This document shows positions 29,796-60,462 of a DNA stretch of 64,000 bases, piece after piece; positions within the stretch are counted from its first letter, which is position 1, and every line of letters begins with the position of its first letter. Made by a program: the position numbers and the translations under genes. Under the pieces are notes generated by a model. The model made no database searches. It was given only the letters and a program-made list of their open reading frames with translations, and was not told the DNA's origin. The DNA comes from an uncultured Acidobacteriota bacterium (lineage in GTDB: Bacteria > Acidobacteriota > Vicinamibacteria > Fen-336): NCBI GenBank assembly GCA_964574335.1, contig CAZNNH010000004.1, positions 28,724-92,723 of the forward strand, in the 5' to 3' direction.

Positions 29796-30746
29796 TCACG
29801 GGATCCCGTATCGCTTGCGTTTCTCCCACAGCGCCTTGCGGCTGATCCCCAGGATCGAGGCCGCCCTGGTCTGGCTGCCGCCCACCACCTCGAGCACGTG
29901 CCGGATGTAGGCCTGCTCCACGTCGCGCAATGACAGGTAGCGCTCGCGTCCGGCCCACAACGTGGTCGGCTGTTCGAGCAGGTGGCCGGGGAAGGCCGAG
30001 CACCGGATGGTGTCGCCGTCGGCATACAGGGCCGCCCGCTCGACCACCGACCGGAGCTCCCGGACGTTCCCCGGCCAGGCGTAGCCCCGCAGCAGGGACA
30101 GCGCCTCGTCGTCGAAGCCCCGGGCCCCGGTGGTGCCGCGGGTGCGTTCCCGGGCCAGGAACCGCTCCGCCAGCGGGCGGATGTCCTCGCGCCGGCTGCG
30201 GAGTGGCGGCAACGTCAGCGGGACGACGCTCAGCCGATGGAACAGATCCTCGCGGAAGGTCCCCTCGGCCACCGCGGCCCGCAGATCGATGTTCGAGGAG
30301 GCCACGAACCGGACGTCGACCTCGAGGGTGCGGGTCCCCCCCAGCCGCTCGAAGCGGCGGTCCTCCACCACCCTCAGCAGCTTGGCCTGCAGGGGGAGGG
30401 TCAGATCCTGTATCTGATCAAAGTACAGCGTGCCCCCGGCGGCCATCTCGATCTTGCCCGCCTTGGCCTGACGGGCGTCGGTGAAGGCGCCCCGCTCATG
30501 CCCGAACAGCTCCGACTCCAGCAGGTTCTCGGGGATCGACGGGCAGTGAACCTTCACGAAGGCGCTGTCGCGCCGCGGGCCCCCGTAGTGTAGCCAGTGG
30601 GCGAGCAGGTCCTTGCCGGTACCGCTCTCTCCCTCGAGCAGCACCGGGCTGCGGGCCGCCGCCAGGCGACCGGTGATCTCCAAGATCTCCCGCATCGCCG
30701 GCGAGGCCGCCACCACCCCGCTGGGAGCACCCAGGAGTGCCTCCAT
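29796..30746 (-). CDS. Sigma-54-dependent transcriptional activator, PspF-like (AAA+ plus Fis-HTH, no regulatory N-domain)
   Basis: It starts directly in the AAA+ domain (GESGTGKDLLA Walker A), has ESELFGHERGAFTDA (a GAFTGA variant) and a C-terminal HTH (RAASILGISRKALWEKRKRYGI). Confidence 0.8.
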   Translation of the reverse strand: MEALLGAPSGVVAASPAMREILEITGRLAAARSPVLLEGESGTGKDLLAHWLHYGGPRRDSAFVKVHCPSIPENLLESELFGHERGAFTDARQAKAGKIEMAAGGTLYFDQIQDLTLPLQAKLLRVVEDRRFERLGGTRTLEVDVRFVASSNIDLRAAVAEGTFREDLFHRLSVVPLTLPPLRSRREDIRPLAERFLARERTRGTTGARGFDDEALSLLRGYAWPGNVRELRSVVERAALYADGDTIRCSAFPGHLLEQPTTLWAGRERYLSLRDVEQAYIRHVLEVVGGSQTRAASILGISRKALWEKRKRYGIP

Positions 30747-31090: not shown

Positions 31091-31662
31091 CGGTAGAGGC
31101 CCCGCTTCTCGATGTGCTCGGCCACCGAGCTCGGCACCAGGAAACGGACGCTGTGCCCGTCGCGCACGGACCGCCGAACTGACGTGGCCGAGATGGCCAG
31201 CCCGGTGCCGGGGATCGGCCGGACGCCTGGCGGGGGATCGTCCGGCTCGAAGGGCAGCGGGTTGCCCGGCCGTGTCACCACCGCTACCGAGCAGAGGCTC
31301 AGGAGGCGATCGGGGTCCTTCCAGTGGCGCAGGTCGGGGTAGGTATCGCTGCCCACGATCAGGAACAGCCCGTCTTCCGGACGCTCTCGGGCCAGCGTCT
31401 CCAGCGTGTCCACGGTGTAGCTGGGGCCGTCTCGTCGCAGCTCGACGTCGCAGGCGACGAAGTGCGGGACACCCCGGGTGGCCAGGCAAACCATGGCGAA
31501 ACGGTCGAGGGGCGAAGACCTGGGCTGGTCGCGGTGGGGCGGCACATGGCAGGGAACGAAGACCACCTGGTCGAGCCGGAGGGCGTCGTAGGCACACTCG
31601 GCGGCGCGCAGGTGACCCAGGTGGATCGGGTCGAAGGTCCCGCCCATGAAGCCGACTCTCAC
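31087..31662 (-). CDS. nadD: Nicotinate-nucleotide adenylyltransferase
   Basis: MRVGFMGGTFDPIHLGHL, the (H/T)xGH nucleotidyltransferase motif. Length is 191 aa. Confidence 0.9.
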   Translation of the reverse strand: MRVGFMGGTFDPIHLGHLRAAECAYDALRLDQVVFVPCHVPPHRDQPRSSPLDRFAMVCLATRGVPHFVACDVELRRDGPSYTVDTLETLARERPEDGLFLIVGSDTYPDLRHWKDPDRLLSLCSVAVVTRPGNPLPFEPDDPPPGVRPIPGTGLAISATSVRRSVRDGHSVRFLVPSSVAEHIEKRGLYR

Positions 31663-32687
31663 GCCGGGCGCTCCAGTCCAGACGGCCCAACACCCCGCTG
31701 CAGGAGCCGCGCCATCGCCCGCTTCAGCTCCTGGACTCCGAGGCCGGATACCGACGACACCGGGATCACCGTCAGACCCAGCCCGGACGCCTCGTCGCGC
31801 AGCCGTGGGAGCGGATCGTCCCCGGGGTCAACCGCGTCCCGCTTGGTGGCCACGACCAACTGCGGCTTGTCCAGAAGCTCCGGGCTCCACAGCCGTACCT
31901 CCTCACGCACCATCTGGAAGGCCCCAACGGCGCTCTCTCCGGTCCCGACGCCGGTGTCCACCACGTGGACCAGGGCCCGGGTGCGCTGGACGTGACGCAG
32001 GAACTGAAGGCCCAGCCCGGCCCCGTGTCGGGCGCCCTCGATGATGCCGGGGATGTCGGCGGCCACGTACTGCGCCTGGTCGACCGCCACCATCCCCAAG
32101 ACCGGCGTCAGGGTGGTGAAGGGGTAGCTCGCCACCTTGGGCCGTGCCGCCGAGATGCTCGACAGAAGCGTCGACTTCCCCGCATTGGGGCAGCCCAGGA
32201 AGCCCACATCCGCAATCAGGCGTAGCTCCAGGCGCAGCCAGCGCTCCTCCCCGGGAGCGCCCGGGTCGGCCTGACGAGGGGCGCGATTCCGGTTGGAGAG
32301 GAAGCTCCGGTTGCCCCGGCCGCCCCGGCCACCGCTCGCCACTACCAGGCGCTCGCCGGGCCGGAGCACCTCCCCGATCAGCTCCTGGGACTCGTCGTCG
32401 AAGGCCAGCGTGCCGGGCGGGACCGGCACCAGCAGGTCCTCTCCGGAGCGACCGGAGCGGTTCCCCGAGCTGCCGTGGCGACCCCGCTGGGCGCGTAGCT
32501 CACTGTGGAAGCGCAAGGGGTAGAGGGTGTTGTGGTGAGGTGCTCCCAGCAGCGCCACGCTGCCGCCACACCCGCCGGAGCCGCCGTCAGGTCCCCCTCG
32601 CGGGACATGGGGCTCATGCCGGAAGCTCACGCATCCCCTCCCGCCGTCCCCCCCCTTCACGAAGATCCTGACGCGGTCGACGAACAT
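31659..32687 (-). CDS. obgE: GTPase Obg/CgtA
   Basis: An Obg fold N-domain (MFVDRVRIFVKGGDGGRGCVSFR), G1 GCPNAGKST and G-domain motifs. Confidence 0.95.
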   Translation of the reverse strand: MFVDRVRIFVKGGDGGRGCVSFRHEPHVPRGGPDGGSGGCGGSVALLGAPHHNTLYPLRFHSELRAQRGRHGSSGNRSGRSGEDLLVPVPPGTLAFDDESQELIGEVLRPGERLVVASGGRGGRGNRSFLSNRNRAPRQADPGAPGEERWLRLELRLIADVGFLGCPNAGKSTLLSSISAARPKVASYPFTTLTPVLGMVAVDQAQYVAADIPGIIEGARHGAGLGLQFLRHVQRTRALVHVVDTGVGTGESAVGAFQMVREEVRLWSPELLDKPQLVVATKRDAVDPGDDPLPRLRDEASGLGLTVIPVSSVSGLGVQELKRAMARLLQRGVGPSGLERPA

Positions 32688-32715: not shown

Positions 32716-32976
32716 CTAGCCTTCGGCGGGGAGCACGCTGACCCGAAGCCCACGCGAGCCGTGGTCCTCGAATCGGACGAAGCCGTCGATCTTCGCGAAC
32801 AGCGTATGGTCTCGGCCCAGGCCGACGTTCCTTCCCGGTTTCCATCTGGTGCCGTGCTGGCGGATGATGATCGTCCCGCCGTTGACACGCTCTCCGCCGT
32901 AGCGCTTCACGCCAAGCCGCTGGGCGTTGCTGTCGCGGCCGTTGCGGCTCGAGCCCTGACCTTTTTTGTGCGCCAT
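32716..32976 (-). CDS. rpmA: 50S ribosomal protein L27
   Basis: [29 protein letters not shown]..., the canonical L27 sequence. Confidence 0.95.
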
Positions 32977-33053: not shown

Positions 33054-33365
33054 TCAGCCTTCGATCTGGTCGATCCGGAGTGTCGTGACCGACTGCCGAT
33101 GGCCTCGGGTACGGCGATAGCCCTTACGCTTCTTGTACTTGAAGACCCGTACCTTGCGATCGCGTCCTTGTTCGAGGACCGTGCCCAGGACGGCCGCGCT
33201 CTCGATCCGAGGCTTTCCCACCCGGGCTTCCCCGTCGCCGGCCACGAGCAGCACGTCTCCCAGCCGCACGCTCTCCCCAGACGCCGCGGCCAGGCGTTCG
33301 ACCCGGATCACGTCCCCGGGCTCGACACGGTACTGCTTGCCGCCCGTCCTCACGATTGCGTACAC
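33054..33365 (-). CDS. rplU: 50S ribosomal protein L21
   Basis: [23 protein letters not shown]..., the canonical L21 sequence. Confidence 0.95.
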
Positions 33366-33471: not shown

Positions 33472-36447
33472 TCAGAAGTCGAAGCCCATCCAGAAGTCGA
33501 ACTGCCACCCGCTAGAGACCACCTTCAAGTCGGTGAACTTGGTCCAGTCAAAGTGCAGCGGATAGCCCAGGAAGAAGACCTGCAGGCCGAAGCCGAACGA
33601 GGCCCGTCCATCCACCAGGTGGAAGCCCTTCACCGGCTCCCCGAACCAGGTGGTCGGATCGTTGGCATCGTAGTTCACGTACGAGGTGCCCGCGTCCGAG
33701 GAGGAGAAGGTGTACTCCTGCCCGTTGTACTTGGCGCCGCCGACCCCGGCATAGAGGGTCCCCCGAACCGGTCCCAGCAGGCCGATCGGCGTCGCCATCA
33801 GGTAGATCGCCGGCAGCCGCAGCTCGAGGTTGGCGTGGAATCCCTGGTTGCCGGCGATCGAGTAGTAGCGGAAGCCCCGCAGCGTGTGGTCGCCGCCGAA
33901 GTAGATGTAGTCGGGGTGGTTGCCGGTCGAGCGGAAGCCGTTGAAGCGCATTGCCAGGACCGAGGAGGTCGAGCCGAGGCGCAGGTACTTGCGCAGGTCG
34001 GCGCTCAGCGTGGTCCGCGACACCGAGTCTCCCAACGGTGGGGCCCACTCCACCCCGATCGAGAACGTGCTCCCATCCAGCGGACCCACATCCTGGAACC
34101 GGGTGGTCTCCTGGGTCAGGCGTATGGACAGCGGGACCATCAGCCCGTTGGCAAACGGCAGGGGTAGCCCGGCCGCCTCGTACTCGGCCTCGACCTGCGC
34201 CTGAATGTCCGGGTCCTGGTAGCGCTCGCGGATGTGGAAGGCGCCGGCAGAGACCGTCAGCCGCCGGAACTTGTCGAGGGGATACTGGGCGAAAGCCAAG
34301 CCGCCGCTCATCCGTTGGGTGAAGAACAACCCGGCCCGGAAGTCGTAGCTGTAGTAGGCGGCATAGCTGTTGTCGAAGAAGAAGATCGTGTTGTCCATGA
34401 GCGACGCGCCCCAGTGGAGGCGCCGCGACATGTTGGTGTAGGTCCCCTGGTAGGTGCGGAACTCGCGGATCGAGGCGGCGGTGACGGTGATGTTCTGGTC
34501 CCCCAGGACGTCGGTCAGGGCCACCTGGCTGCCGCCGAAGAAATCGCCGCCCGAGGTGACGCCGATGTTGAGGGGAGGCCTGCCCTCCAGGTACAACCCC
34601 TCGAACAGGCGCTTGCGCCGTTTGTTCTCGGCGACGATCTGGTGGGTCACGTCGGGCTGGAAGTCGACCACCTCTCCGGACGCCACCAGCACCTCCTGGT
34701 CGGCCTCCTTGAGCGGCTCGTTGGTCTCGATGGCGTGCAGCGCGTACTCACCCTTGTGGTAGCTGATGAAGGCGACCTTGTCGCCGTCCTTGCGGGGCAG
34801 CGGCGCCGGGGCGACGTTGCCGCCGAGCACGTCGGTGTACTGCCGGACCACCCCGGTGCGCAGGTCCAGACTGCGCAGGTTGAAGATCTCGTCGTCCTCG
34901 TTGGAGGCGTAGAACAACGTGTTGCCGTCCGGGGAGAAGACCGGCGTCAGGTCGTCGAAGGTGCCGAAGGTGAGCTGGGTGCGCTGGCTCGGGTCGCCCA
35001 GCGGGAAGGTGTAGATCTTGTCGTAGCCACTGATGTTACGGGTGTAGACGACGGTGCGACCGTCAGGCGAGACCCGGGGGTCGGAGTCGTAGAACGGGTC
35101 GCTCGTGAGGTTCCGGATGGTGCCGTCCTCGAGATCCATCAGGAACAGGTCCGATACCCCCCTCTGGATGCCGGAGAGGATCACGTGGTGGCCGTCGGGC
35201 AGCAAGCACGGCGACTTGGCCTGGTCGAGGGTCATCGGCAGCTTCTTGACCACCCGGCCGTCGAGCGGCGACATCAGGAACAACGAGCGCCGCTTCCCCG
35301 TGCGAGCGAAGAACGCGATCAGGTCCCCGTGCGGCCCGAAGTCCAGCGAGCGCCCGGCCACGAAGTTGTCCGACATCGTCAGGTTCTCGTACTGGCCGGT
35401 GAAGCCGCCGGTCAGGTTCTTGATCACCTTGCCGTCTTCGGCGGAGAGGAGCACGATGTCCAGCTCGCCGTCGGCGCGGTTGCCGCTGAAGGCCACCATC
35501 AGGTCCCCCGAGGGGCTGGGCATGAAGCCGAACACCTGGGTGAACGGCGTGACCTCCGAGTTGGGGGCCAGGTCGGGCCCGTAGTCCTCGGGCCGCTCCT
35601 TGTCGCGGTAGGGCTTGAAGCGCTCCTTCATCCACTTGTCGAAGGCCCGGTCGAAATCGTCGGGGCTGATCCGGAAGGCCTGGTTGTAGACGTCGTTGAA
35701 GCCGGCCCCCATCACCCCCTTGCGCAGGGTGTACATGAACTGCCGGATACCTTCCTTGCCGTAGCGGTCCTCGATGAACTCGAAGGCGGCGTGGCCCATG
35801 TTGTAGACCAGGCGGCCGCTGAAGGCGGCGAACTGGGCCCTCGAGAGCTTGGGCACGTTGTCGGTGACAGCGGCGTCCCTGATCATCATCAGGTCGAGGG
35901 GATCCCAGACGCCACGCATGTACTCGGCCAGCCCTTCGTCCACCCACAGCGGCGCAGAGCGCCCCAGCAGGCTTCGCGGCACCAGATCGAACTCGAAGAT
36001 GTGGGTCAGCTCATGGGTGATCAGCCCCTGCAGCTTGGCCGGCGCCTCGTCGATTGGCATCACCATCCGGTTGCGCACCGGCTCGGCGAAGGCCGCCACC
36101 CCTTCCGGCACGAACTCGGGGAAGAGGTTGGTCTGCTCGAACTCCGAGTGGGTCTTGTAGAACATCACCGGGATCGCGAAGGGGATCTCGTGTTTGAGCT
36201 CCGAGGAGACGTGCTGGTAGGCGCTCTCGAGGTAGGAGACGAGGCGCGACAGGTGCTGCTCGAACTCGGGGTAGTAGTAGACGCGGAAGTGGGGGCTCTG
36301 GTAGACCTGCCAGGAGAACGAGTCGTAGGTGACCTTGTTCTTCCCGTAGTAGGGGATGAACTGGGCGTGGGCCGGGGCCGCCAGCCCGACTGCCAGGGTG
36401 GCCGCGGCGAGGCCGACGAGCCCCCGCGTCGTCATCTGGTGCAGCAT
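33472..36447 (-). CDS. 991-aa outer-membrane fusion protein. From N- to C-terminus it has a signal peptide, a gluzincin-like HExxH peptidase domain, a TolB-like (PD40) beta-propeller, and an Omp85/BamA-type beta-barrel.
   Basis: Signal peptide ...AAPAHA-Q. ITHELTH...WVDEGLAEY forms an HExxH-(21)-E metal site. Propeller blades repeat LPDGHHVI, SPDGRTVVY, SPDGNTLFY. The C-terminus has HTLRGFRYY (the Omp85 L6 VRGF/Y motif) and ends WQFDFWMGFDF with an aromatic terminal Phe. No POTRA domains are present. Confidence 0.7.
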   Translation of the reverse strand: MLHQMTTRGLVGLAAATLAVGLAAPAHAQFIPYYGKNKVTYDSFSWQVYQSPHFRVYYYPEFEQHLSRLVSYLESAYQHVSSELKHEIPFAIPVMFYKTHSEFEQTNLFPEFVPEGVAAFAEPVRNRMVMPIDEAPAKLQGLITHELTHIFEFDLVPRSLLGRSAPLWVDEGLAEYMRGVWDPLDLMMIRDAAVTDNVPKLSRAQFAAFSGRLVYNMGHAAFEFIEDRYGKEGIRQFMYTLRKGVMGAGFNDVYNQAFRISPDDFDRAFDKWMKERFKPYRDKERPEDYGPDLAPNSEVTPFTQVFGFMPSPSGDLMVAFSGNRADGELDIVLLSAEDGKVIKNLTGGFTGQYENLTMSDNFVAGRSLDFGPHGDLIAFFARTGKRRSLFLMSPLDGRVVKKLPMTLDQAKSPCLLPDGHHVILSGIQRGVSDLFLMDLEDGTIRNLTSDPFYDSDPRVSPDGRTVVYTRNISGYDKIYTFPLGDPSQRTQLTFGTFDDLTPVFSPDGNTLFYASNEDDEIFNLRSLDLRTGVVRQYTDVLGGNVAPAPLPRKDGDKVAFISYHKGEYALHAIETNEPLKEADQEVLVASGEVVDFQPDVTHQIVAENKRRKRLFEGLYLEGRPPLNIGVTSGGDFFGGSQVALTDVLGDQNITVTAASIREFRTYQGTYTNMSRRLHWGASLMDNTIFFFDNSYAAYYSYDFRAGLFFTQRMSGGLAFAQYPLDKFRRLTVSAGAFHIRERYQDPDIQAQVEAEYEAAGLPLPFANGLMVPLSIRLTQETTRFQDVGPLDGSTFSIGVEWAPPLGDSVSRTTLSADLRKYLRLGSTSSVLAMRFNGFRSTGNHPDYIYFGGDHTLRGFRYYSIAGNQGFHANLELRLPAIYLMATPIGLLGPVRGTLYAGVGGAKYNGQEYTFSSSDAGTSYVNYDANDPTTWFGEPVKGFHLVDGRASFGFGLQVFFLGYPLHFDWTKFTDLKVVSSGWQFDFWMGFDF

Positions 36448-36463: not shown

Positions 36464-37243
36464 CTACTGAAGGAGGATGCGCGTCCCGCGGATCTTCTGG
36501 GGAGAGATGACTCCGAGGAAGTTGGGGAGCAGGCGATCCATCAGCTCGAAGTACGACGACAGCGGCGACACCTTCTGGTCCGCCCCGTAGAGCACCTCCT
36601 CGGTGAAGCGCTCCTTGTGAAGCACCTCGCCGGAGCGACCGTCGACGAACACGAAGTCGGCGTCGAGGCTGAACCCTCTCCGCTCCAGAAAGCGGTTCTG
36701 CCGGATGAGCCGGGGCCGGTTCGAGGCGTCACGAACCACTCGCTCCTCGGCCTGATAGCCGGATCGGTTCTTCTCCTCGAAGCTCACCCTGCCGGTGACG
36801 ATCAGCGGTGACTGATACTCCTCGCCGATCTTGCGCCAGAAGGCGGCATCTTGCAGGGCCTGGCCGGCCCGCAGGTCGTACTGCTCCCGGTCTTCCTTGG
36901 TGTAGTGCCCCTCCTCGCCGAGGCTCTGCTTGATCTGGTCCAGGGCGTCGTAGAGAGGGGGGCGGTCCGGCTCCAAGACCTGCAGCTTCGAGTTCGAGCG
37001 GAGCTGGTTCTGGAGCAGCCGGGCGGTCTCCGAGGCAACGTCCACGTCGCCCGCAGTCAGCTCGCCCACGAAGCCCGCCACCAGCACGCGACGGAACGCC
37101 CTCACGTCGATCTTGCTCTGCAGCGGCACCTGTACCGGCACCTCTACGTAGCCGGTGCAGCTCGACAGGGCGAGGAGGGTGATGACACCCAGCCCGAGGC
37201 TAGGGACGCTGCCGTGCTTGGCTCTTCCGGTTCCGCTTGTCAT
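36464..37243 (-). CDS. Hypothetical lipoprotein
   Basis: The 259-aa tail of track ORF 36464..37543 starts MTSGTGRAKHGSVPSLGLGVITLLALSSC (lipobox LSSC). Upstream residues of the track ORF overlap the TPR gene in another frame. Confidence 0.5.
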   Translation of the reverse strand: MTSGTGRAKHGSVPSLGLGVITLLALSSCTGYVEVPVQVPLQSKIDVRAFRRVLVAGFVGELTAGDVDVASETARLLQNQLRSNSKLQVLEPDRPPLYDALDQIKQSLGEEGHYTKEDREQYDLRAGQALQDAAFWRKIGEEYQSPLIVTGRVSFEEKNRSGYQAEERVVRDASNRPRLIRQNRFLERRGFSLDADFVFVDGRSGEVLHKERFTEEVLYGADQKVSPLSSYFELMDRLLPNFLGVISPQKIRGTRILLQ

Positions 37244-37547
37244 CGGCTTCCCTGAACAGGTCGTAGTTCTGCTGGATGTAGACGTCCCCGGGCCGCAGCT
37301 CGAGGGCCCGCTCGTAGGCCTTGCGGGCCTTGTCGAACTCCCCCGCCTGCTCCAGCGCCACCGCCAGGTCGTTGAGCGCGTGGGCATTGTCGGGGTCGAG
37401 CAGCACCGCCTTCTCGAACCGGAACTGAGCCTCACGCCACAGCCCCTTCCTGGCCACCTGGATGCCGAAGCGGAGCTCCTCCTTGCTCGTTGAGACGGAG
37501 CCGGTCTGGGCCAGCAGCAACAGGGAGAGTGGAATCGCGGCAAGCAT
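37200..37547 (-). CDS. Secreted TPR-repeat protein
   Basis: Signal peptide MLAAIPLSLLLLAQTGS, followed by TPR helices (ALNDLAVALEQAGEFDKARKAYERALELRP). Confidence 0.6.
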   Translation of the reverse strand: MLAAIPLSLLLLAQTGSVSTSKEELRFGIQVARKGLWREAQFRFEKAVLLDPDNAHALNDLAVALEQAGEFDKARKAYERALELRPGDVYIQQNYDLFREADDKRNRKSQARQRP

Positions 37548-53968: not shown

Positions 53969-56900
53969 GTGAGCCGGCGCCTTCTCCGGATTCTCACCGT
54001 CCTGGCCGTGGTCAGCTTCATCGCCTTCGGGCTGCAGCTCCCGCGGTTGACCGGCTGGCTGATCCGTACCCGGCTGGCGGCGGCGTTCGAGCGCCCCACG
54101 CGGCTCTCGGAGGTGCGCTTCGAGCTGGCGCCGCTCCGTGTCGTGGTGCGCGGCCTGGCGGTGGGGGGCTTCACGCCAGAGGCGCCCCCCTTCATCGAGG
54201 TGAGGGAGATCACGGCGCGCCCCAGCCTCGGCACCCTGTGGTCGCCCCGGCTGGCGCTCGGGCAGCTCCGACTCGATGGTCTCACGATCCGAATCAACGC
54301 CTTTCCAGATGGCGGTGACGACATCCCCAAGCCGCAGGCCAAAGGGGGCGGCGGCAGGCTGGAGGTCGGCCGCCTGATCGTGGCGGACGGCGAGTTCCGG
54401 CTGAACCACCGCCGGGTCCCCTTGAACCTCGACCTGCCCGACTTCCGTGGCCAGCTCACCTCCCAGGGTGCGGGGGCCCTCGCGGGCCGGATCACCTTCG
54501 GCCCGGGTGGGCTCCGTTTCTCCGACGCGCCCCTGCTGCCGGTGAGCACCGACATCGAGATGCTCCTCTCGGGGGGCGTGGTGACGGTGGAGTCGGCCCA
54601 CCTCACGGCGGAGGGAACGGATCTTCGGTACGCCGGCCAGGTCCGTATCGCTGCCCGACCGGTCGGCGCTCTCTCGCTGGCCGGCCCGATCAACCTCGAT
54701 GTCCTCGAGCGCCACGTGATGCGCACCGGGTTCGGGATCAAGGGGGCGGGCCAATACGACGGGACCGTCTACATCGATGGCTCCCGGCTCACGCTCAAGG
54801 GTCGCCTGTGGGGGACCGAGGGGGTGTTCGACGGCGCTCCGGTCCCCCGCTACGCCGGCGAGCTGGACTGGGACGGCGAAGGCGTCCACATCCTCGGCCT
54901 CGACGTCGACGCGCTGGGAGGCCACGGGGTGATGGACATCGACATCCCTTCCGGCCCGAGGATCGCCACCTGGAGCGGCGAGATCGAGAGCGCCGATGGC
55001 GAGGGACTGCTGAAGCTGATCTTCGACATGGGCGCTCCCGGCCTGGCCACGGCGGCCAGCGGCCGCTTCTCCATTCGCTGGCCGAAGGGGCGATTCCGCG
55101 CGGGCCTTTCCGGCCAGATGACGGTGGGCCTTGACCCGGTCGACGACGAGCGGACCCCGCTGAGCGGTCACCTCGACTGGCGGGCCGAGGACGGTGCGCA
55201 GTTCCTGGAGCCGGCCGACCTGCGGACGCCCACCACCCATGCCTGGCTGCGCGGCACGATCGGCGCCGACAACTCGGCCAAGCTCCTGGTCGAGGCCGAG
55301 AGCAGCGATCTGGCGGACAGCGACCGGCTCGGCTGGCAGCTCCGACTCGCCCTCGGCAACCCCGAGGCGCAGAAGGCTGGCATCACTGGCCGTGGGGCCT
55401 TCCGTGGGACCTGGGGCGGCACCCTCGCGGAGCCGCTCTACGAGGGGCGCGTCACCGCGTCGGAGGTGGGATACCTGGGCGTGGTCTGGGGAAACGCCGA
55501 GTGGGCCGGAAGCGCCGATCCCTACGAGATTCGCTCCCACTCCCTGGTCCTCCGCCGGCCCGACGGCGCCGAGATGTGGATCGACGGGACCACGGAGCTC
55601 GGCTTCTACGGTCTCGAGGACGGCCTGGACGTCAAGGTTCGCTACCGCGACTGGCCGGCCAGCGACTTTCTCACCGCCTTCGCCTGGGACCTGGACGTCG
55701 AGGCGCCGGTCACCGGCACCGCCACGGTGGCCGGCCGACGGAGCGCACCTCGCGGTCGCGCCGAGCTGGCGAGCGCGGGGGGCAGGTACTACGGGATCCC
55801 CTTCGAGGCCTTCTCGGCCGACTCGCGGTATGACGGTGGGCTCACGCGAGGCTCCGGCCGCGCCCGGATCGGGGATGGCGAAGTTCGGTTCTCCGGGATC
55901 ATCAGCGACGACGGCCATCTGGACGGCGAGGCCACCCTCGATGGGGTGGACGTGGGAAAGGCCTTCCCGGAGCTCCTGCCGAGCTTGCCCTGGGGCGGCG
56001 CCCTCACCGGATCGGCGCTGCTGCAGGGGCCCCTCGATCGTCCCCGTCTCACAGGAAGCGTGGGCTCGCCGCGCCTCCACCTGGGTGACGAGGAGCTCGG
56101 GGTGCTCAGTGCCCGGGCACAGGGGCTCGGCGGCGGTGCCGTCTCGCTCGCCGCGCGCTGCGACTCGGCGCGGGTCGACCTCGCGCTTTCGGGCCAGATG
56201 GAGGCGTTCGCGCCGTACCGGATCGATCTCCGCCTGACGGCCGAACAGACCCATCTCGGGTCCTTCCTACGGGTGGTGCGGCCCCAGCTTCCCGCGGGCG
56301 TCGAGGTGGTCTCGACCGGCCGGCTCACGATCGGGGGACCGCTGCTGACGCCGGACGAGCTGACGTTGGACGCCGTCGTGCCCGCGTTGGTGGTGCGGCT
56401 ACCCGACTACACGGTGGCCAACCGCACGCCGCTGCACCTCTCCGTCGAGCACGGCCGGCTGGAGCTGCACGACCTGCAGCTCGCCGGCGAGGGGACCGAC
56501 CTCGCCATCGACGGCAGCGCGGCGCTGCTCGAGAACGGCCCGGTGGATCTGGCGATTCGGGGCGCCGCCGACCTCAGGGCGCTTTCCGCCATCACCCGTC
56601 GCCTGCGCGGCCAGGGAGATGCCCTGCTGGCGGTGACGGTCGGCGGCACCCGCGACCAGCCCCAGGTCTCGGGCATGCTGCAGCTCGACGGCGCCGGGGT
56701 GCGGGCGCGCGGCTTCCCGCACGGCATCGACGACGTGAGGGGGGTGGTGAGCTTCACCGAGCGTGCCGCCCAGTTCAAGGAGATCACCGGCGTCCTGGGA
56801 GGCGGCCAGGTGGTCTTCTCCGGGGAAGCCGCCTACGGCCCGGCCGGCCTTTCGACGTTCGAGGTCGAGGCCACCGGCCGTGAGCTCTCGTTCCGCTACC

Positions 56901-57829
56901 CCGAAGGCCTGCGCAGCCAGCTCGACGCCGACATCCGCTTCTTCGGCGACGCCGACGAGCAATGGGTCACAGGAGAGATCGACGTGCGTCAGGCCACCTG
57001 GACCCGCCGCTACGACCTCGCCTCGGAGCTGCTCGCCAGCCACGAGGGGCTGGCCCCAACGGCGGCACTCGAGCCCGGCGTCCGCTACGACATCAAGGTT
57101 CGCGCCCCCGGCACCCTCCGGCTCGACAACAACCTGGCCAACCTGCGCGCCCGCGCCGACCTCCGGATCCAGGGTAGCTCCACCCAGCCGGTCATTCTGG
57201 GGCGTGCCGAGATCGAGGGGGGCCGGGTCTACTTCCAGGGGAACACCTATATCATCCGGCGCGGCACCATCGACTTCTCGAACCCGGAGCGGATCGACCC
57301 GCGCTTCGACATCGAGGCCGAGACTCGGATCCAGTCCTACCGGGTGACGCTGCGGATGAACGGCACCCTCGAGCGGGTCTCGCCGACCCTGACCTCCGAC
57401 CCACCGCTGTCGGCGGTCCAGATCCTGAGCCTGCTGGCAGGTGCCGACGAGTCGGCGGTGGCCAGCCTGACCCAGGTGCAGGCGGACCAGGCCAACCTGG
57501 TAGCCACCGGCGCCGCCACGCTGGCTGCCGGGAGGATCTCCGAGGAGGTGGGTCTCGAGCGGGAGGCCGAACGACTCTTCGGCCTCAATCGGTTCTCGAT
57601 CGACCCTTCCGTCATCAAAGGGGGGGTCAGCAACCCCAGCGCCCGCCTGACCGTCGGAAAGCGCATCACACCGGACCTGAACGTCCTCTACTCGATCGAC
57701 CTCCGTGGCCAGGAGGACCAGGTGATCTCCGTCGAGTACAGCCTCTCCGACCGGCTCCTGTTGCTGGTGACCCGTTCCCAGAACCCCTCCGAGCTGGCCT
57801 TCGACCTCCGGTTGATCCGGAGCTTCTGA
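53969..57829 (+). CDS. tamB: TamB / AsmA-like translocation and assembly module protein (DUF490 C-terminus)
   Basis: A 1286-aa protein with an N-terminal TM anchor (LRILTVLAVVSFIAFGL), a long beta-rich repetitive body and a C-terminal DUF490-like block (...RLTVGKRITPDLNVLYSIDLRG...LIRSF). Confidence 0.8.
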   Translation: MSRRLLRILTVLAVVSFIAFGLQLPRLTGWLIRTRLAAAFERPTRLSEVRFELAPLRVVVRGLAVGGFTPEAPPFIEVREITARPSLGTLWSPRLALGQLRLDGLTIRINAFPDGGDDIPKPQAKGGGGRLEVGRLIVADGEFRLNHRRVPLNLDLPDFRGQLTSQGAGALAGRITFGPGGLRFSDAPLLPVSTDIEMLLSGGVVTVESAHLTAEGTDLRYAGQVRIAARPVGALSLAGPINLDVLERHVMRTGFGIKGAGQYDGTVYIDGSRLTLKGRLWGTEGVFDGAPVPRYAGELDWDGEGVHILGLDVDALGGHGVMDIDIPSGPRIATWSGEIESADGEGLLKLIFDMGAPGLATAASGRFSIRWPKGRFRAGLSGQMTVGLDPVDDERTPLSGHLDWRAEDGAQFLEPADLRTPTTHAWLRGTIGADNSAKLLVEAESSDLADSDRLGWQLRLALGNPEAQKAGITGRGAFRGTWGGTLAEPLYEGRVTASEVGYLGVVWGNAEWAGSADPYEIRSHSLVLRRPDGAEMWIDGTTELGFYGLEDGLDVKVRYRDWPASDFLTAFAWDLDVEAPVTGTATVAGRRSAPRGRAELASAGGRYYGIPFEAFSADSRYDGGLTRGSGRARIGDGEVRFSGIISDDGHLDGEATLDGVDVGKAFPELLPSLPWGGALTGSALLQGPLDRPRLTGSVGSPRLHLGDEELGVLSARAQGLGGGAVSLAARCDSARVDLALSGQMEAFAPYRIDLRLTAEQTHLGSFLRVVRPQLPAGVEVVSTGRLTIGGPLLTPDELTLDAVVPALVVRLPDYTVANRTPLHLSVEHGRLELHDLQLAGEGTDLAIDGSAALLENGPVDLAIRGAADLRALSAITRRLRGQGDALLAVTVGGTRDQPQVSGMLQLDGAGVRARGFPHGIDDVRGVVSFTERAAQFKEITGVLGGGQVVFSGEAAYGPAGLSTFEVEATGRELSFRYPEGLRSQLDADIRFFGDADEQWVTGEIDVRQATWTRRYDLASELLASHEGLAPTAALEPGVRYDIKVRAPGTLRLDNNLANLRARADLRIQGSSTQPVILGRAEIEGGRVYFQGNTYIIRRGTIDFSNPERIDPRFDIEAETRIQSYRVTLRMNGTLERVSPTLTSDPPLSAVQILSLLAGADESAVASLTQVQADQANLVATGAATLAAGRISEEVGLEREAERLFGLNRFSIDPSVIKGGVSNPSARLTVGKRITPDLNVLYSIDLRGQEDQVISVEYSLSDRLLLLVTRSQNPSELAFDLRLIRSF

Positions 57830-60462
57830 TGCTCCCCTGGCTGCTCCTTCCCGTTGCCTCTGCCGCGCTCGCCGCCGTGGGCGAGGGCGGGGCGCCGCTG
57901 GTGAGCGAGGTGCGTCTCGAGGCTCCGGCACCGGAGCAGCGGCGCTACGGCCGGTACATCACGCTCCACCCTGGCCAGCCGCTGGGCGGCGAGGCGGTGG
58001 CCGACTCGGTCCGGCTGCTCTACGCCACCGGTGCCTTCGCCGACGTGGTGGTCGAGAAGAGCCTGGGCCCGGCCGGACTGGAGCTGGTGTTTCGAACCGT
58101 GCCGACCCCCCGGCTGCAGCGGGTCCGTGTGGCGGCGGGCTCTCCTCGGTCGGCCGGTTGGCTGCGCGCGGCCGCAGACCTCCGGCCCCGCGAGCCGCTC
58201 TGGCCGTCGCGCCTCGAGCGCGCTGGCCGGGACGCCGCCCTGGCTCTGGCCCGCGAGGGCTACCTGGAGGCGCGGGTGGTGGTCCAGGCGTTGCCGGTCG
58301 AGGGTGGCGCCGACGCCCGGTTCGAGGTGGAGGCCGGCCCGCAGGTTCGGGTCCGGAGGGTGAGCCTGGAAGGTATCGGGGCCAGTGAAGCCCCTCTCCT
58401 GCAGCACCGGCTCGCCGTCCGACCGGGCGACGTCTTCGACCGTGCCGAGATCGAGAAGGCGCGAGACGCGCTCCGCCGCGACCTGGCGGCCCATGGCCGC
58501 TGGTCGGCCTCTGTCCAGGCCGAGGAGGCCTACGATCCCCGTACCGCCTCGGTGGATCTGGTGTTCCGCGTCGACCCCGGTCCTCCCACCCGGGTCGAGC
58601 TGCGCGGCGCCGCCGACGGCCACTCGCTGCAGGTCACCCTCTCCGACCTGCTGCGGGACGGTGCCATGGGACGCGACGCCCTGGAGGCCGGGTTGGAGCG
58701 GATCGAGACACACCACCAGGAACGGGGCTATCGTGACGTCGAAGCCCACTACAGCATCGACGACAGCGGTCCCGTCCGGGAGGTGCTCTACGACGTGACG
58801 CCGGGCCCACGCAGCGTTGTGGCGTCCGTCACCATCGAGGGAGCGGAGCTGCCCACCACCGGGCTTTCGACCCGCCCCGACGAGCCGCTCGTGGACCAAC
58901 AGCTCGAGCAGGACACGCAGGCCCTGAAGCAGCTCCTCGAGGAGCGCGGGCATGTCTCGGCGCAGGTCGAGGCCGAGACACGGCCCGGCGGCGGCTGGAC
59001 GCCGGTCGTGTTCCGGGTGTCGCCGGGCCCACGCACGACGGTACGCTCGTTCGAGATCGTGGCCCCCACCGACGATGCCGGGGGCGAGGCGATCGCAGGG
59101 CTGCGGATTCGGGTCGGGGCGCCGTATCGGATTCGCGACCTGGCCCTCGATCGGGCGACCGTGGCCGCCCACTACCGCAACGCCGGCTTCCTGAGCGCGC
59201 GGGTCGAGCCCCAGGTGCGGCTGAGCGAGGACCAGACCGAGGCCGACGTGGCGCTGGCCGTCGACCCGGGCCCTCGCACCTTCATCGACCAGATCGTGGT
59301 CGCCGGCCTCGAGCAAACCCGAGAGCGGGTGATTCGACGCGAGCTGCTCGTCCGGCCGGGAGAGCCGCTCGGCCTGCAACGTGTCCTGGAGAGCCAGCGG
59401 CGGCTGGCCGGCCTCGGCATCCTCTCTCAGGTGGATATCAGCGAGGTCGAGACCGGGGACCCAACGCGGCTACACCTGTTGGTCGCCGCCGAAGAGGCTC
59501 CCCGACACACCCTGGCCTACGGGCTCGGCTACAGCGAACGGGAGAAGCTCCGGGCCAGCATCGAGCTGACCCGCAACAACCTGAGCGGGCTCAACCGCAG
59601 CCTGACCCTGTTCGCCCGGGGCAGCTTCAAGGGGAGCCGGTTCTTCACCACCTATCGAGTCCCCTACTTCTTCGGCCGTCGGCGCGAGCTGTACGTGACC
59701 GGCTTCTGGGAGGAGGACGATCGGGACAGCTTCGACTTCAATCGCTACGGTGGGCTCGTTCAGACGCCGATCGGCTTGACGGACACCCTCCGGTTGATCC
59801 TTCGGCTTTCCTATCAGGACACCAACACCTTCAACGTGCAGGTCCCCTGCGAGGAGGTGGACCGCCGGCTGTGCGACGCCACCGTCTCGGGGCCTTCGGC
59901 CACCATCATCCAGGATTCGCGTGATGACCCGCTCTCGCCCACCGAGGGGCACTTCCTGGGAGCCGACCTGCAGCTCTCGCACAGGGTTCTCGGCGGGGAC
60001 AGCTTCGTCAAGGGCTTCTTCCAGGGGGCGGTGTACGCCAAAACGCTGCCTCGCCTGATCCTGGCCCTCAACGGTCGGCTGGGGATCGCCCGCGCCCTGG
60101 GGCCGATTCGCTCGCTCCGGCTGCCCCTGCCCGAGCGCTTCTTCCTGGGAGGCGACTTCGGCCTGCGCGGCTTCAAGACCGACGCGGTGGATCCCGAAGG
60201 CGGCAACGGCCTCCTGTTCGGCGGCGCCGAGCTGCGCTTCGACGCCGGCCGCTCGGTGTCGATCGCCGCCTTCGGCGAGGCCGGCAACCTCTACCCGCTG
60301 GCCCGGGACATGAGCCTCGGCGACCTCCGCTACACGGCCGGCGTCGGGCTGCGGTACACGAGCGCCTTCGGCCCGTTGCGTGTGGACTGGGGCTACAAGC
60401 TCAACCGCCGCGAGGGCGAGCCGGCCTCGCACTGGCACTTCACGATCGGCCATGCGTTCTAG
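57829..60462 (+). CDS. bamA: Outer membrane protein assembly factor BamA (Omp85; POTRA repeats plus surface-antigen barrel)
   Basis: An 877-aa protein with a signal peptide, POTRA-like repeats (each about 80 aa), and a C-terminal barrel carrying an L6-type LRGFK motif. It ends ...HWHFTIGHAF with a terminal Phe. Its ATG overlaps the tamB stop by 1 nt. Confidence 0.85.
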   Translation: MLPWLLLPVASAALAAVGEGGAPLVSEVRLEAPAPEQRRYGRYITLHPGQPLGGEAVADSVRLLYATGAFADVVVEKSLGPAGLELVFRTVPTPRLQRVRVAAGSPRSAGWLRAAADLRPREPLWPSRLERAGRDAALALAREGYLEARVVVQALPVEGGADARFEVEAGPQVRVRRVSLEGIGASEAPLLQHRLAVRPGDVFDRAEIEKARDALRRDLAAHGRWSASVQAEEAYDPRTASVDLVFRVDPGPPTRVELRGAADGHSLQVTLSDLLRDGAMGRDALEAGLERIETHHQERGYRDVEAHYSIDDSGPVREVLYDVTPGPRSVVASVTIEGAELPTTGLSTRPDEPLVDQQLEQDTQALKQLLEERGHVSAQVEAETRPGGGWTPVVFRVSPGPRTTVRSFEIVAPTDDAGGEAIAGLRIRVGAPYRIRDLALDRATVAAHYRNAGFLSARVEPQVRLSEDQTEADVALAVDPGPRTFIDQIVVAGLEQTRERVIRRELLVRPGEPLGLQRVLESQRRLAGLGILSQVDISEVETGDPTRLHLLVAAEEAPRHTLAYGLGYSEREKLRASIELTRNNLSGLNRSLTLFARGSFKGSRFFTTYRVPYFFGRRRELYVTGFWEEDDRDSFDFNRYGGLVQTPIGLTDTLRLILRLSYQDTNTFNVQVPCEEVDRRLCDATVSGPSATIIQDSRDDPLSPTEGHFLGADLQLSHRVLGGDSFVKGFFQGAVYAKTLPRLILALNGRLGIARALGPIRSLRLPLPERFFLGGDFGLRGFKTDAVDPEGGNGLLFGGAELRFDAGRSVSIAAFGEAGNLYPLARDMSLGDLRYTAGVGLRYTSAFGPLRVDWGYKLNRREGEPASHWHFTIGHAF

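Follow-up and report, generated by a model that had tools for sequence, protein, structure and literature searches.

The window considered here is a stretch of 64,000 nucleotides from an uncultured Acidobacteriota bacterium of the Vicinamibacteria (assembly GCA_964574335.1, contig CAZNNH010000004.1, positions 28,724 to 92,723), and the gene in question lies on its minus strand at 33472..36447. The gene encodes a protein of 991 amino acids in which a signal peptide, a predicted zinc metallopeptidase, a β-propeller and an Omp85-type β-barrel follow one another on a single chain. It is the last of three adjacent genes, the other two coding for a small secreted TPR protein and an outer-membrane lipoprotein (Table 1). 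The open reading frame (ORF) is genuine: its ATG is preceded by GGAGAGGA, and the G+C content at its third codon positions (GC3 = 0.94) is that of genuine genes in a window of ∼68% GC. A first-pass annotation, made from the sequence without database searches, had proposed three modules in one secreted protein. Peptidase, propeller and Omp85-type barrel have each been confirmed, and all the motifs quoted at that stage are present, namely HELTH (residues 145–149), EGLAEY (171–176), TLRGFRYY (855–862) and the C-terminal FDFWMGFDF.

Secretion is signalled by an N-terminal peptide whose predicted cleavage site is flanked by A28 and Q29, both invariant among 43 orthologues. In distant relatives the mature chain likewise starts just before the FGKNK motif. 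The corresponding segment, (Y/F)(F/Y)GKNK(V/I)xYxxFxW, is nearly invariant throughout the family; it starts directly after the cleavage site, and the structure model gives it a predicted local distance difference test score (pLDDT) below 50.

The N-terminal domain is a predicted gluzincin in which no catalytic residue is missing. Among 32 aligned full-length relatives that span 27–84% identity, H145, E146, H149, E171 and Y215 are invariant, and the arrangement HExxH-x21-E, with the third zinc-ligand Glu inside a WxxEG motif, is kept in all of them. Searches with hidden Markov models (HMMs) bring the target sequence marginally into Peptidase_MA_2 (34.2 bits for a cut-off of 32.4), a family matched by 20 of the relatives with a best E-value of 5.3e-18, and the NCBIfam flagellinolysin HExxH model matches the target at E 4e-11. 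A profile of the domain leads to the cold-active M1 aminopeptidase 3CIA (E 5.6e-4) and to the collagenase ColG (E 8.4e-4). In both matches the HExxH motif, the Glu of WxxEG and the Tyr are aligned, Y215 falling on the position of the M1 catalytic Tyr. The HExxH region, which the first-pass annotation had allowed might align to no metallopeptidase clan, thus finds counterparts in Peptidase_MA_2, 3CIA and ColG. By this alignment H145, H149 and E171 would be the zinc ligands, E146 the general base and Y215 the transition-state residue. The domain, mainly helical in the structure model, is not filed under M1 because the GxMEN motif is missing (GVAAFAEP stands in its place at residues 116–123) and the spacing is x21 rather than x18.

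The propeller is six-bladed and of the TolB/PD40 type. Precomputed Pfam matches to Tricorn_N and Tricorn_2nd fall on it, and the family profile leads to tricorn protease 1K32 (E 3.5e-10). The TolB model TIGR02800 gives 83.8 bits for a cut-off of 343, with a match limited to the propeller (profile positions 198–399). Membership of TolB of the Tol–Pal system was rejected on this score, far under the cut-off, and on the missing N-terminal α/β domain; unlike TolB, the window protein also has a peptidase and a barrel on the same chain. Propellers coupled to peptidases also occur in tricorn protease and in the S9 prolyl-oligopeptidase/DPP-IV enzymes, where they gate substrate access to the peptidase; these are soluble serine peptidases, whereas the window protein is a membrane-anchored gluzincin. 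By analogy, its propeller would most likely be a substrate-binding or gating platform.

A TolB-like propeller could also suit a non-catalytic envelope tether. The propeller would then resemble TolB in binding a Pal/OmpA-like or peptidoglycan-associated partner, the HExxH domain would be a binding module and not an enzyme, and the protein would stabilise the link between outer membrane and cell wall. Such a role is very improbable, given that every gluzincin catalytic residue is invariant in very divergent relatives, which is unexpected for a pseudo-enzyme, and that the module holds no OmpA/Pal-like domain.

The propeller is joined to the barrel by a low-confidence linker with a clade-conserved basic patch; the pLDDT is below 50 at residues 604–636, and the model shows no regular secondary structure there. 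With its 42 residues, the linker could not accommodate a POTRA domain, and no POTRA-like secondary structure is predicted in it. Residues 1–583 are fully taken up by signal peptide, peptidase and propeller, and an HMM search of the target finds no POTRA family at E ≤ 1. The absence of POTRA domains, already noticed in the first pass, is thereby upheld.

Recognition of the barrel depends on the depth of the alignment. It is missed by single-sequence HMM and phmmer searches and by a profile of close orthologues, and a diverse alignment is needed. With the target sequence alone, PF01103 gives no match at E ≤ 1, and both ShlB (14.7 bits, cut-off 22.7; E 0.022, at the L6 region) and NF047779 (17.2 bits, cut-off 200) stay below threshold. 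PF01103 is matched by 12 of the 32 relatives (best E 4.7e-23). The family profile reaches BamA structures in the PDB at 4e-12 and covers the whole barrel of F. nucleatum BamA (9ccg) at 2.7e-13, and hhalign of the family against the window's own BamA-like gene gives E 2.4e-6. The closest structural matches are TamA, BamA and Sam50. The model has 16 strands, with RGF in the loop that connects strands 11 and 12, in line with the Omp85-type barrel and L6 RGF motif of the first-pass annotation. TLRGF (855–859) is aligned with GLRGF of the POTRA-bearing Omp85 protein of the window, ELRLP stands at 875–879, and the C-terminus is BamA-like. R857 is found in 31 of the 32 relatives and G858 in 24, and E875, R877 and P879 are invariant.

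In Omp85 proteins, the L6 Arg has its lid-lock partner in the (F/G)xDxG motif of strand 13. The motif reads F899-x-D901-x-G903 in the wider family, with Asp in 25 of the 32 relatives. Residue 901 is Gly (YAGVG) in the window protein and in 40 of 43 clade proteins, and the L6 Arg857 is kept. That the clade has lost the lid-lock Asp suggests that the barrel is used differently from that of BamA.

The two genes upstream are tightly packed against the fusion gene: the lipoprotein gene stops 16 nucleotides before its ATG, and the TPR gene overlaps the start of the lipoprotein gene by 44 nucleotides. The lipoprotein matches no Pfam or NCBIfam family; the TPR protein gives weak, sub-threshold matches to the TPR families PilW, NlpI and Tgl. 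The LptE/PelC-like fold of the lipoprotein is characteristic of lipoproteins docked to barrels of the outer membrane. LptD–LptE and PelB–PelC pair a barrel with a dedicated lipoprotein, an association that is presumptive for the window pair; the window lipoprotein is larger (259 amino acids), has an extra helical insert and belongs to neither family at the sequence level.

This gene order recurs. By tblastn, both small genes lie directly upstream of the orthologues in loci of Vicinamibacteria, Marinacidobacterales and, weakly, Aminicenantes, and the TPR gene is recovered in every orthologous locus. Among far relatives (27–32% identity, from organisms of 31–52% GC), a TPR gene (107–128 amino acids), a gene for 190–230 amino acids and the fusion gene follow in this order in three of four cases. 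A TPR gene of 107–128 amino acids occupies the same position in the related loci L001, L084, L085 and L087. The middle gene is homologous to that of the window in L087 (hhalign probability 97%, E 7.6e-11) and probably so in L084 (E 4.6e-5); in L085 hhalign detects no homology to the window lipoprotein. The lipobox sits on one or the other of the two small proteins, depending on the lineage. The combination of TPR protein, lipoprotein and fusion protein appears to be previously unreported.

Such partners, together with the conserved barrel, would also suit an outer-membrane-protein assembly factor, that is, a working Omp85 insertase in which the propeller serves as docking platform instead of BamB or POTRA, clients are trimmed or proof-read by the peptidase, and the lipoprotein and TPR protein correspond to BamE and BamD. 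The barrel residues speak for it (R857 nearly invariant, E875, R877 and P879 wholly so, a BamA-like C-terminal strand), as do the insertases TamA, BamA and Sam50 as best structural matches and the resemblance of the two partners to those of BAM; a 'BamA-BamB fusion' has indeed been put forward (Heinz & Lithgow, PMC4104836). We nevertheless regard this function as unlikely. The propeller is six-bladed and TolB-like rather than eight-bladed as in BamB, there is no POTRA domain for substrate reception, the strand-13 Asp has given way to Gly in the clade, the window already has a POTRA-bearing Omp85 gene next to tamB, and the invariance of the catalytic residues suggests that the core activity is proteolysis.

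Table 1. Features of the fusion gene, its module and its surroundings; positions refer to the window unless a related locus is named
Feature	Position	Strand	Remarks
Signal peptide	36364..36447, residues 1–28	−	Translation; predicted signal-peptidase I site AHA↓QF
Conserved segment at the mature N-terminus	∼36310–36363, residues 29–46	−	
Gluzincin-type zinc metallopeptidase domain	35563..36315, ∼residues 45–295	−	HMM, conservation, profile matches
Catalytic residues	HELTH 145–149, 36001–36015; E171 in WVDEGLAEY, 35935–35937; Y215	−	Alignment
Six-bladed TolB/PD40-type β-propeller	34699..35550, ∼residues 300–583	−	
Linker	34573..34698, residues 584–625	−	Clade-conserved basic patch ENKRRKRLFE..LEGRPP
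Omp85-type 16-strand β-barrel	33475..34572, residues 626–991	−	
L6-like loop	Residues 842–867, between strands 11 and 12; R857-G858-F859, 33871–33879	−	
Lid-lock position of strand 13	Residue 901, 33745–33747	−	
Outer-membrane lipoprotein, upstream partner	36464..37243	−	259 amino acids; lipobox LLALSS↓C; LptE/PelC-like fold
Secreted TPR protein, first module gene	37200..37547	−	115 amino acids; translation
Small module genes in related loci	L001 4936–5992; L084 2994–3984; L085 1979–2993; L087 2030–3011		
Paralogue without partner genes (example)	L043 5001–7997		
Barrel-less relative, Salinibacter ruber plasmid pSR116	L083 3908–5809 (NZ_CP030365.1 81325–83226)		634 amino acids
rplU (L21)	33054..33365	−	Directly downstream
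rpmA (L27)	32716..32976	−	Downstream
obg	31659..32687	−	Downstream
Sigma-54 activator	29796..30746	−	316 amino acids
TamB-family gene	53969..57829	+	1286 amino acids
POTRA-bearing Omp85 gene	57829..60462	+	

The architecture itself has a precedent. The first-pass annotation had not recognised it as a described family; it corresponds to the WD40-like Omp85 subfamily, one of the ten into which Heinz & Lithgow (2014, Front Microbiol 5:370; PMC4104836) divided the Omp85/TpsB superfamily, and one that is free of POTRA domains and has a propeller most similar to TolB. Table S2 of that paper lists architectures of PF01103 and PF07676 without POTRA, and Table S3, with ∼95 members, gives Phyre2 matches to BamA/TamA (4K3B/4C00) and to TolB (2W8B), both at a confidence of ∼100. 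A further column, headed 'best aminopeptidase hit', holds M1 enzymes (1Z5H/4KXD/3QNF) and M9 collagenases (4AR1/4AR9) at ∼99. The main text treats the propeller only, the peptidase appearing just in Table S3, and the paper makes no mention of the TPR and lipoprotein module found here. Its members (among them UniProt C1A6X2, Q2IIM8, D0MEQ5 and Q11Q40) were drawn from UniProt genomes of Bacteroidota, Myxococcota, Rhodothermota, Gemmatimonadota, Geobacter, Vibrio and others, and the word 'Acidobacteria' is absent from the main text. A 2024 Leptospira paper likewise states that Omp85 subfamilies carry 'divergent WD40 and peptidase domains', and annotation pipelines already label relatives either as 'BamA/TamA family outer membrane protein' or as 'Omp85 superfamily domain/WD40-like Beta Propeller Repeat'. 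The window protein shows the same three fold classes (BamA/TamA, TolB, aminopeptidase/collagenase) and a PD40/TolB propeller ahead of the barrel instead of POTRA. Judged by its predicted domains, it is an acidobacterial member of this subfamily; membership is assigned because these defining features, fold classes and lack of POTRA, are shared.

The family is large and common in Acidobacteriota. A word-index search matched more than 3,400 proteins, of which the top 120 are 971–1002 amino acids long and 61–93% identical to the target, those with a taxonomic label being from Vicinamibacteria/Acidobacteria metagenome-assembled genomes. An exhaustive search of representatives gave 1,112 clusters (50% identity) at E ≤ 1e-30, which is an upper bound to which PD40-rich proteins contribute; many of them are end-to-end relatives of 930–1100 amino acids at 27–35% identity. 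At least 568 GTDB species genomes have relatives, the best being from Vicinamibacteria at 62–63% identity, and the window accordingly belongs to a Vicinamibacteria-like acidobacterium that lacks a closely related reference genome. No exact copy of the window protein stands in the contig index searched, where the identical lipoprotein occurs only on a JGI contig of 947 bp. The 80 loci kept from a related-locus search with a 12-sequence alignment belong almost exclusively to Acidobacteriota, and the distribution across phyla is drawn from metagenome relatives and the literature.

Two kinds of relative depart from the three-gene arrangement or from the three-domain chain. Some 62 Vicinamibacterales loci (within L008–L072) hold paralogues of the same architecture, ∼1000–1045 amino acids long and 43–45% identical to the window protein, the divergent upstream genes of which include a TlpA-like thioredoxin in 51 of 62 and an extracytoplasmic function (ECF) sigma factor in 32 of 62. 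A plasmid of Salinibacter ruber, a species represented in the published subfamily list, encodes a 'basic secretory protein-like protein' that matches the peptidase and propeller (residues 33–517, 25% identity, E 2e-39) and has no barrel. The ORF that follows it was examined as a possible detached barrel and is not one.

[quoted passage not shown] In Omp85 barrels the two termini are periplasmic, and the number of strands modelled here is even; the N-terminal domains would accordingly be expected to project into the periplasm. The 16-strand barrel would sit in the outer membrane and hold propeller and peptidase on its periplasmic side. A role of the barrel chiefly as an anchor fits the barrel-less peptidase and propeller of the Salinibacter plasmid. 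The fusion protein would be made with its two co-transcribed partners and would probably work together with both, the small periplasmic TPR protein possibly as an adaptor, by analogy with NlpI–Prc or with the TPR domain of BepA. Its task is likely to be envelope proteolysis, by which proteins of the outer membrane or the periplasm would be processed or kept under quality control. BepA, an M48 zinc peptidase with a TPR domain that associates with BAM, and NlpI–Prc are periplasmic proteases at the outer membrane. The likeness is functional only (TPR adaptors, envelope protein quality control), as they belong to other peptidase families, have no barrel fusion and share no homology beyond the sub-threshold generic TPR matches.

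A bolder version, which we advance tentatively and hold to be well short of probable, sees in the module a self-contained outer-membrane proteolytic machine. Its POTRA-less barrel, in which RGF, ELR.P and the C-terminal strand are all conserved, would capture β-strands of stalled or misassembled outer-membrane proteins or lipoproteins and hand them to the propeller-gated peptidase.

The side of the membrane on which the peptidase works may be judged from the best-studied enzyme–Omp85 fusion. In PlpD, a patatin-like Omp85 protein (formerly 'type Vd'), an N-terminal enzyme is fused to an Omp85 barrel as in the window protein; the enzyme domain stays periplasmic with the barrel as scaffold, and the authors consider that a folded domain cannot pass through the barrel (PMC11116518). 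PlpD combines a patatin lipase with one POTRA domain, the window protein a zinc peptidase with a propeller and no POTRA, and a type Vd assignment was rejected for want of both POTRA and patatin domains. A TpsB assignment was rejected as well: POTRA is absent, ShlB stays below threshold, and the gene adjoins the TPR and lipoprotein genes, rplU and rpmA rather than a TpsA gene.

These comparisons bear on the idea of a surface-displayed or secreted protease, the N-terminal modules of which would leave the cell by way of the barrel or beside it, in the manner of type V or two-partner secretion, and break down external proteins for nutrition. Acidobacteriota, and Bacteroidota with their many copies, degrade environmental polymers, the N-terminal domain resembles secreted enzymes such as collagenases and flagellinolysin, and weak ShlB/FhaC HMM matches occur at the L6 region (E 0.022 for the target; ≤1.4e-5 for 4 of the 32 relatives). 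Export of this kind is nonetheless improbable, more so than a role in assembly. It would require a folded six-bladed propeller and a 250-residue helical domain to traverse a closed barrel without an energy source, in a protein devoid of POTRA domains and of TpsB-type architecture and without a TpsA-like neighbour; the sole tested enzyme–Omp85 precedent, PlpD, is not secreted (PMC11116518); and, of the two partners, the outer-membrane lipoprotein has a fold of the periplasmic side and the TPR protein is periplasmic. The first-pass annotation had considered both surface exposure or delivery by a two-partner-secretion-like route and a barrel-anchored periplasmic protease. The former is not borne out, there being no POTRA, no TpsB plug and no TpsA-type neighbour, and the enzyme domain of PlpD being periplasmic; the latter is the reading favoured here.

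Several observations weigh against a partner-assisted, periplasm-facing peptidase. Peptidase_MA_2 is barely above its cut-off on the target, and the PDB peptidase matches are marginal (E ∼5e-4). The orientation of the domains in the AlphaFold2 (AF2) model is unreliable (predicted template modelling score, pTM, 0.54; linker pLDDT <50). We infer the complex with the two neighbours from gene order only, and the ∼62 Vicinamibacterales paralogues, as well as one distant Poribacteria-like relative, do without the TPR and lipoprotein partner genes. The Omp85 motifs RG[FY] and ELR.P are not obviously needed by a passive anchor, and their conservation, with that of a BamA-like last strand, makes an active role of the barrel possible. 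Literature searches found no experimental study of the WD40-like Omp85 subfamily.

The module is embedded in housekeeping genes. On the downstream flank rplU, rpmA and obg are accompanied by nadD and rsfS, and on the upstream flank dprA, topA and a GIDA-family (trmFO/gid-like) gene lie on the opposite strand, a synteny shared with the Vicinamibacteria genome GCA_050246895.1. Downstream of rsfS, and at the same position in L001, stands a gene for a sigma-54 activator made of AAA+ and HTH_8 domains only, with no receiver or sensor domain. Farther away, the separate bamA gene reported in the first pass proves to be a POTRA-bearing BamA-like gene paired with tamB, with four POTRA matches and PF01103 at E 4e-40. 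The TamB-family gene overlaps its start. A pairing of bamA with tamB is reported for some non-proteobacterial diderms.

Omp85 proteins form the core of outer-membrane biogenesis, and the re-use of their scaffold for other tasks has been accepted only recently (PlpD, 2024). The WD40-like/peptidase subfamily is large and experimentally uncharacterised. The window protein adds no new architecture to it and offers three handles: an invariant catalytic site, a conserved three-gene module that points to a complex, and a lid-lock Asp that has been lost in this clade. Of the three, the conserved module is the most useful as a new lead. If the module were indeed a proteolytic machine in its own right, quality control of the BepA/BAM type would be united in one polypeptide with two accessory proteins and would be widespread in non-proteobacterial diderms. 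The module is frequent among soil Acidobacteriota, and what it does would be relevant to how abundant, poorly studied phyla maintain their envelope.

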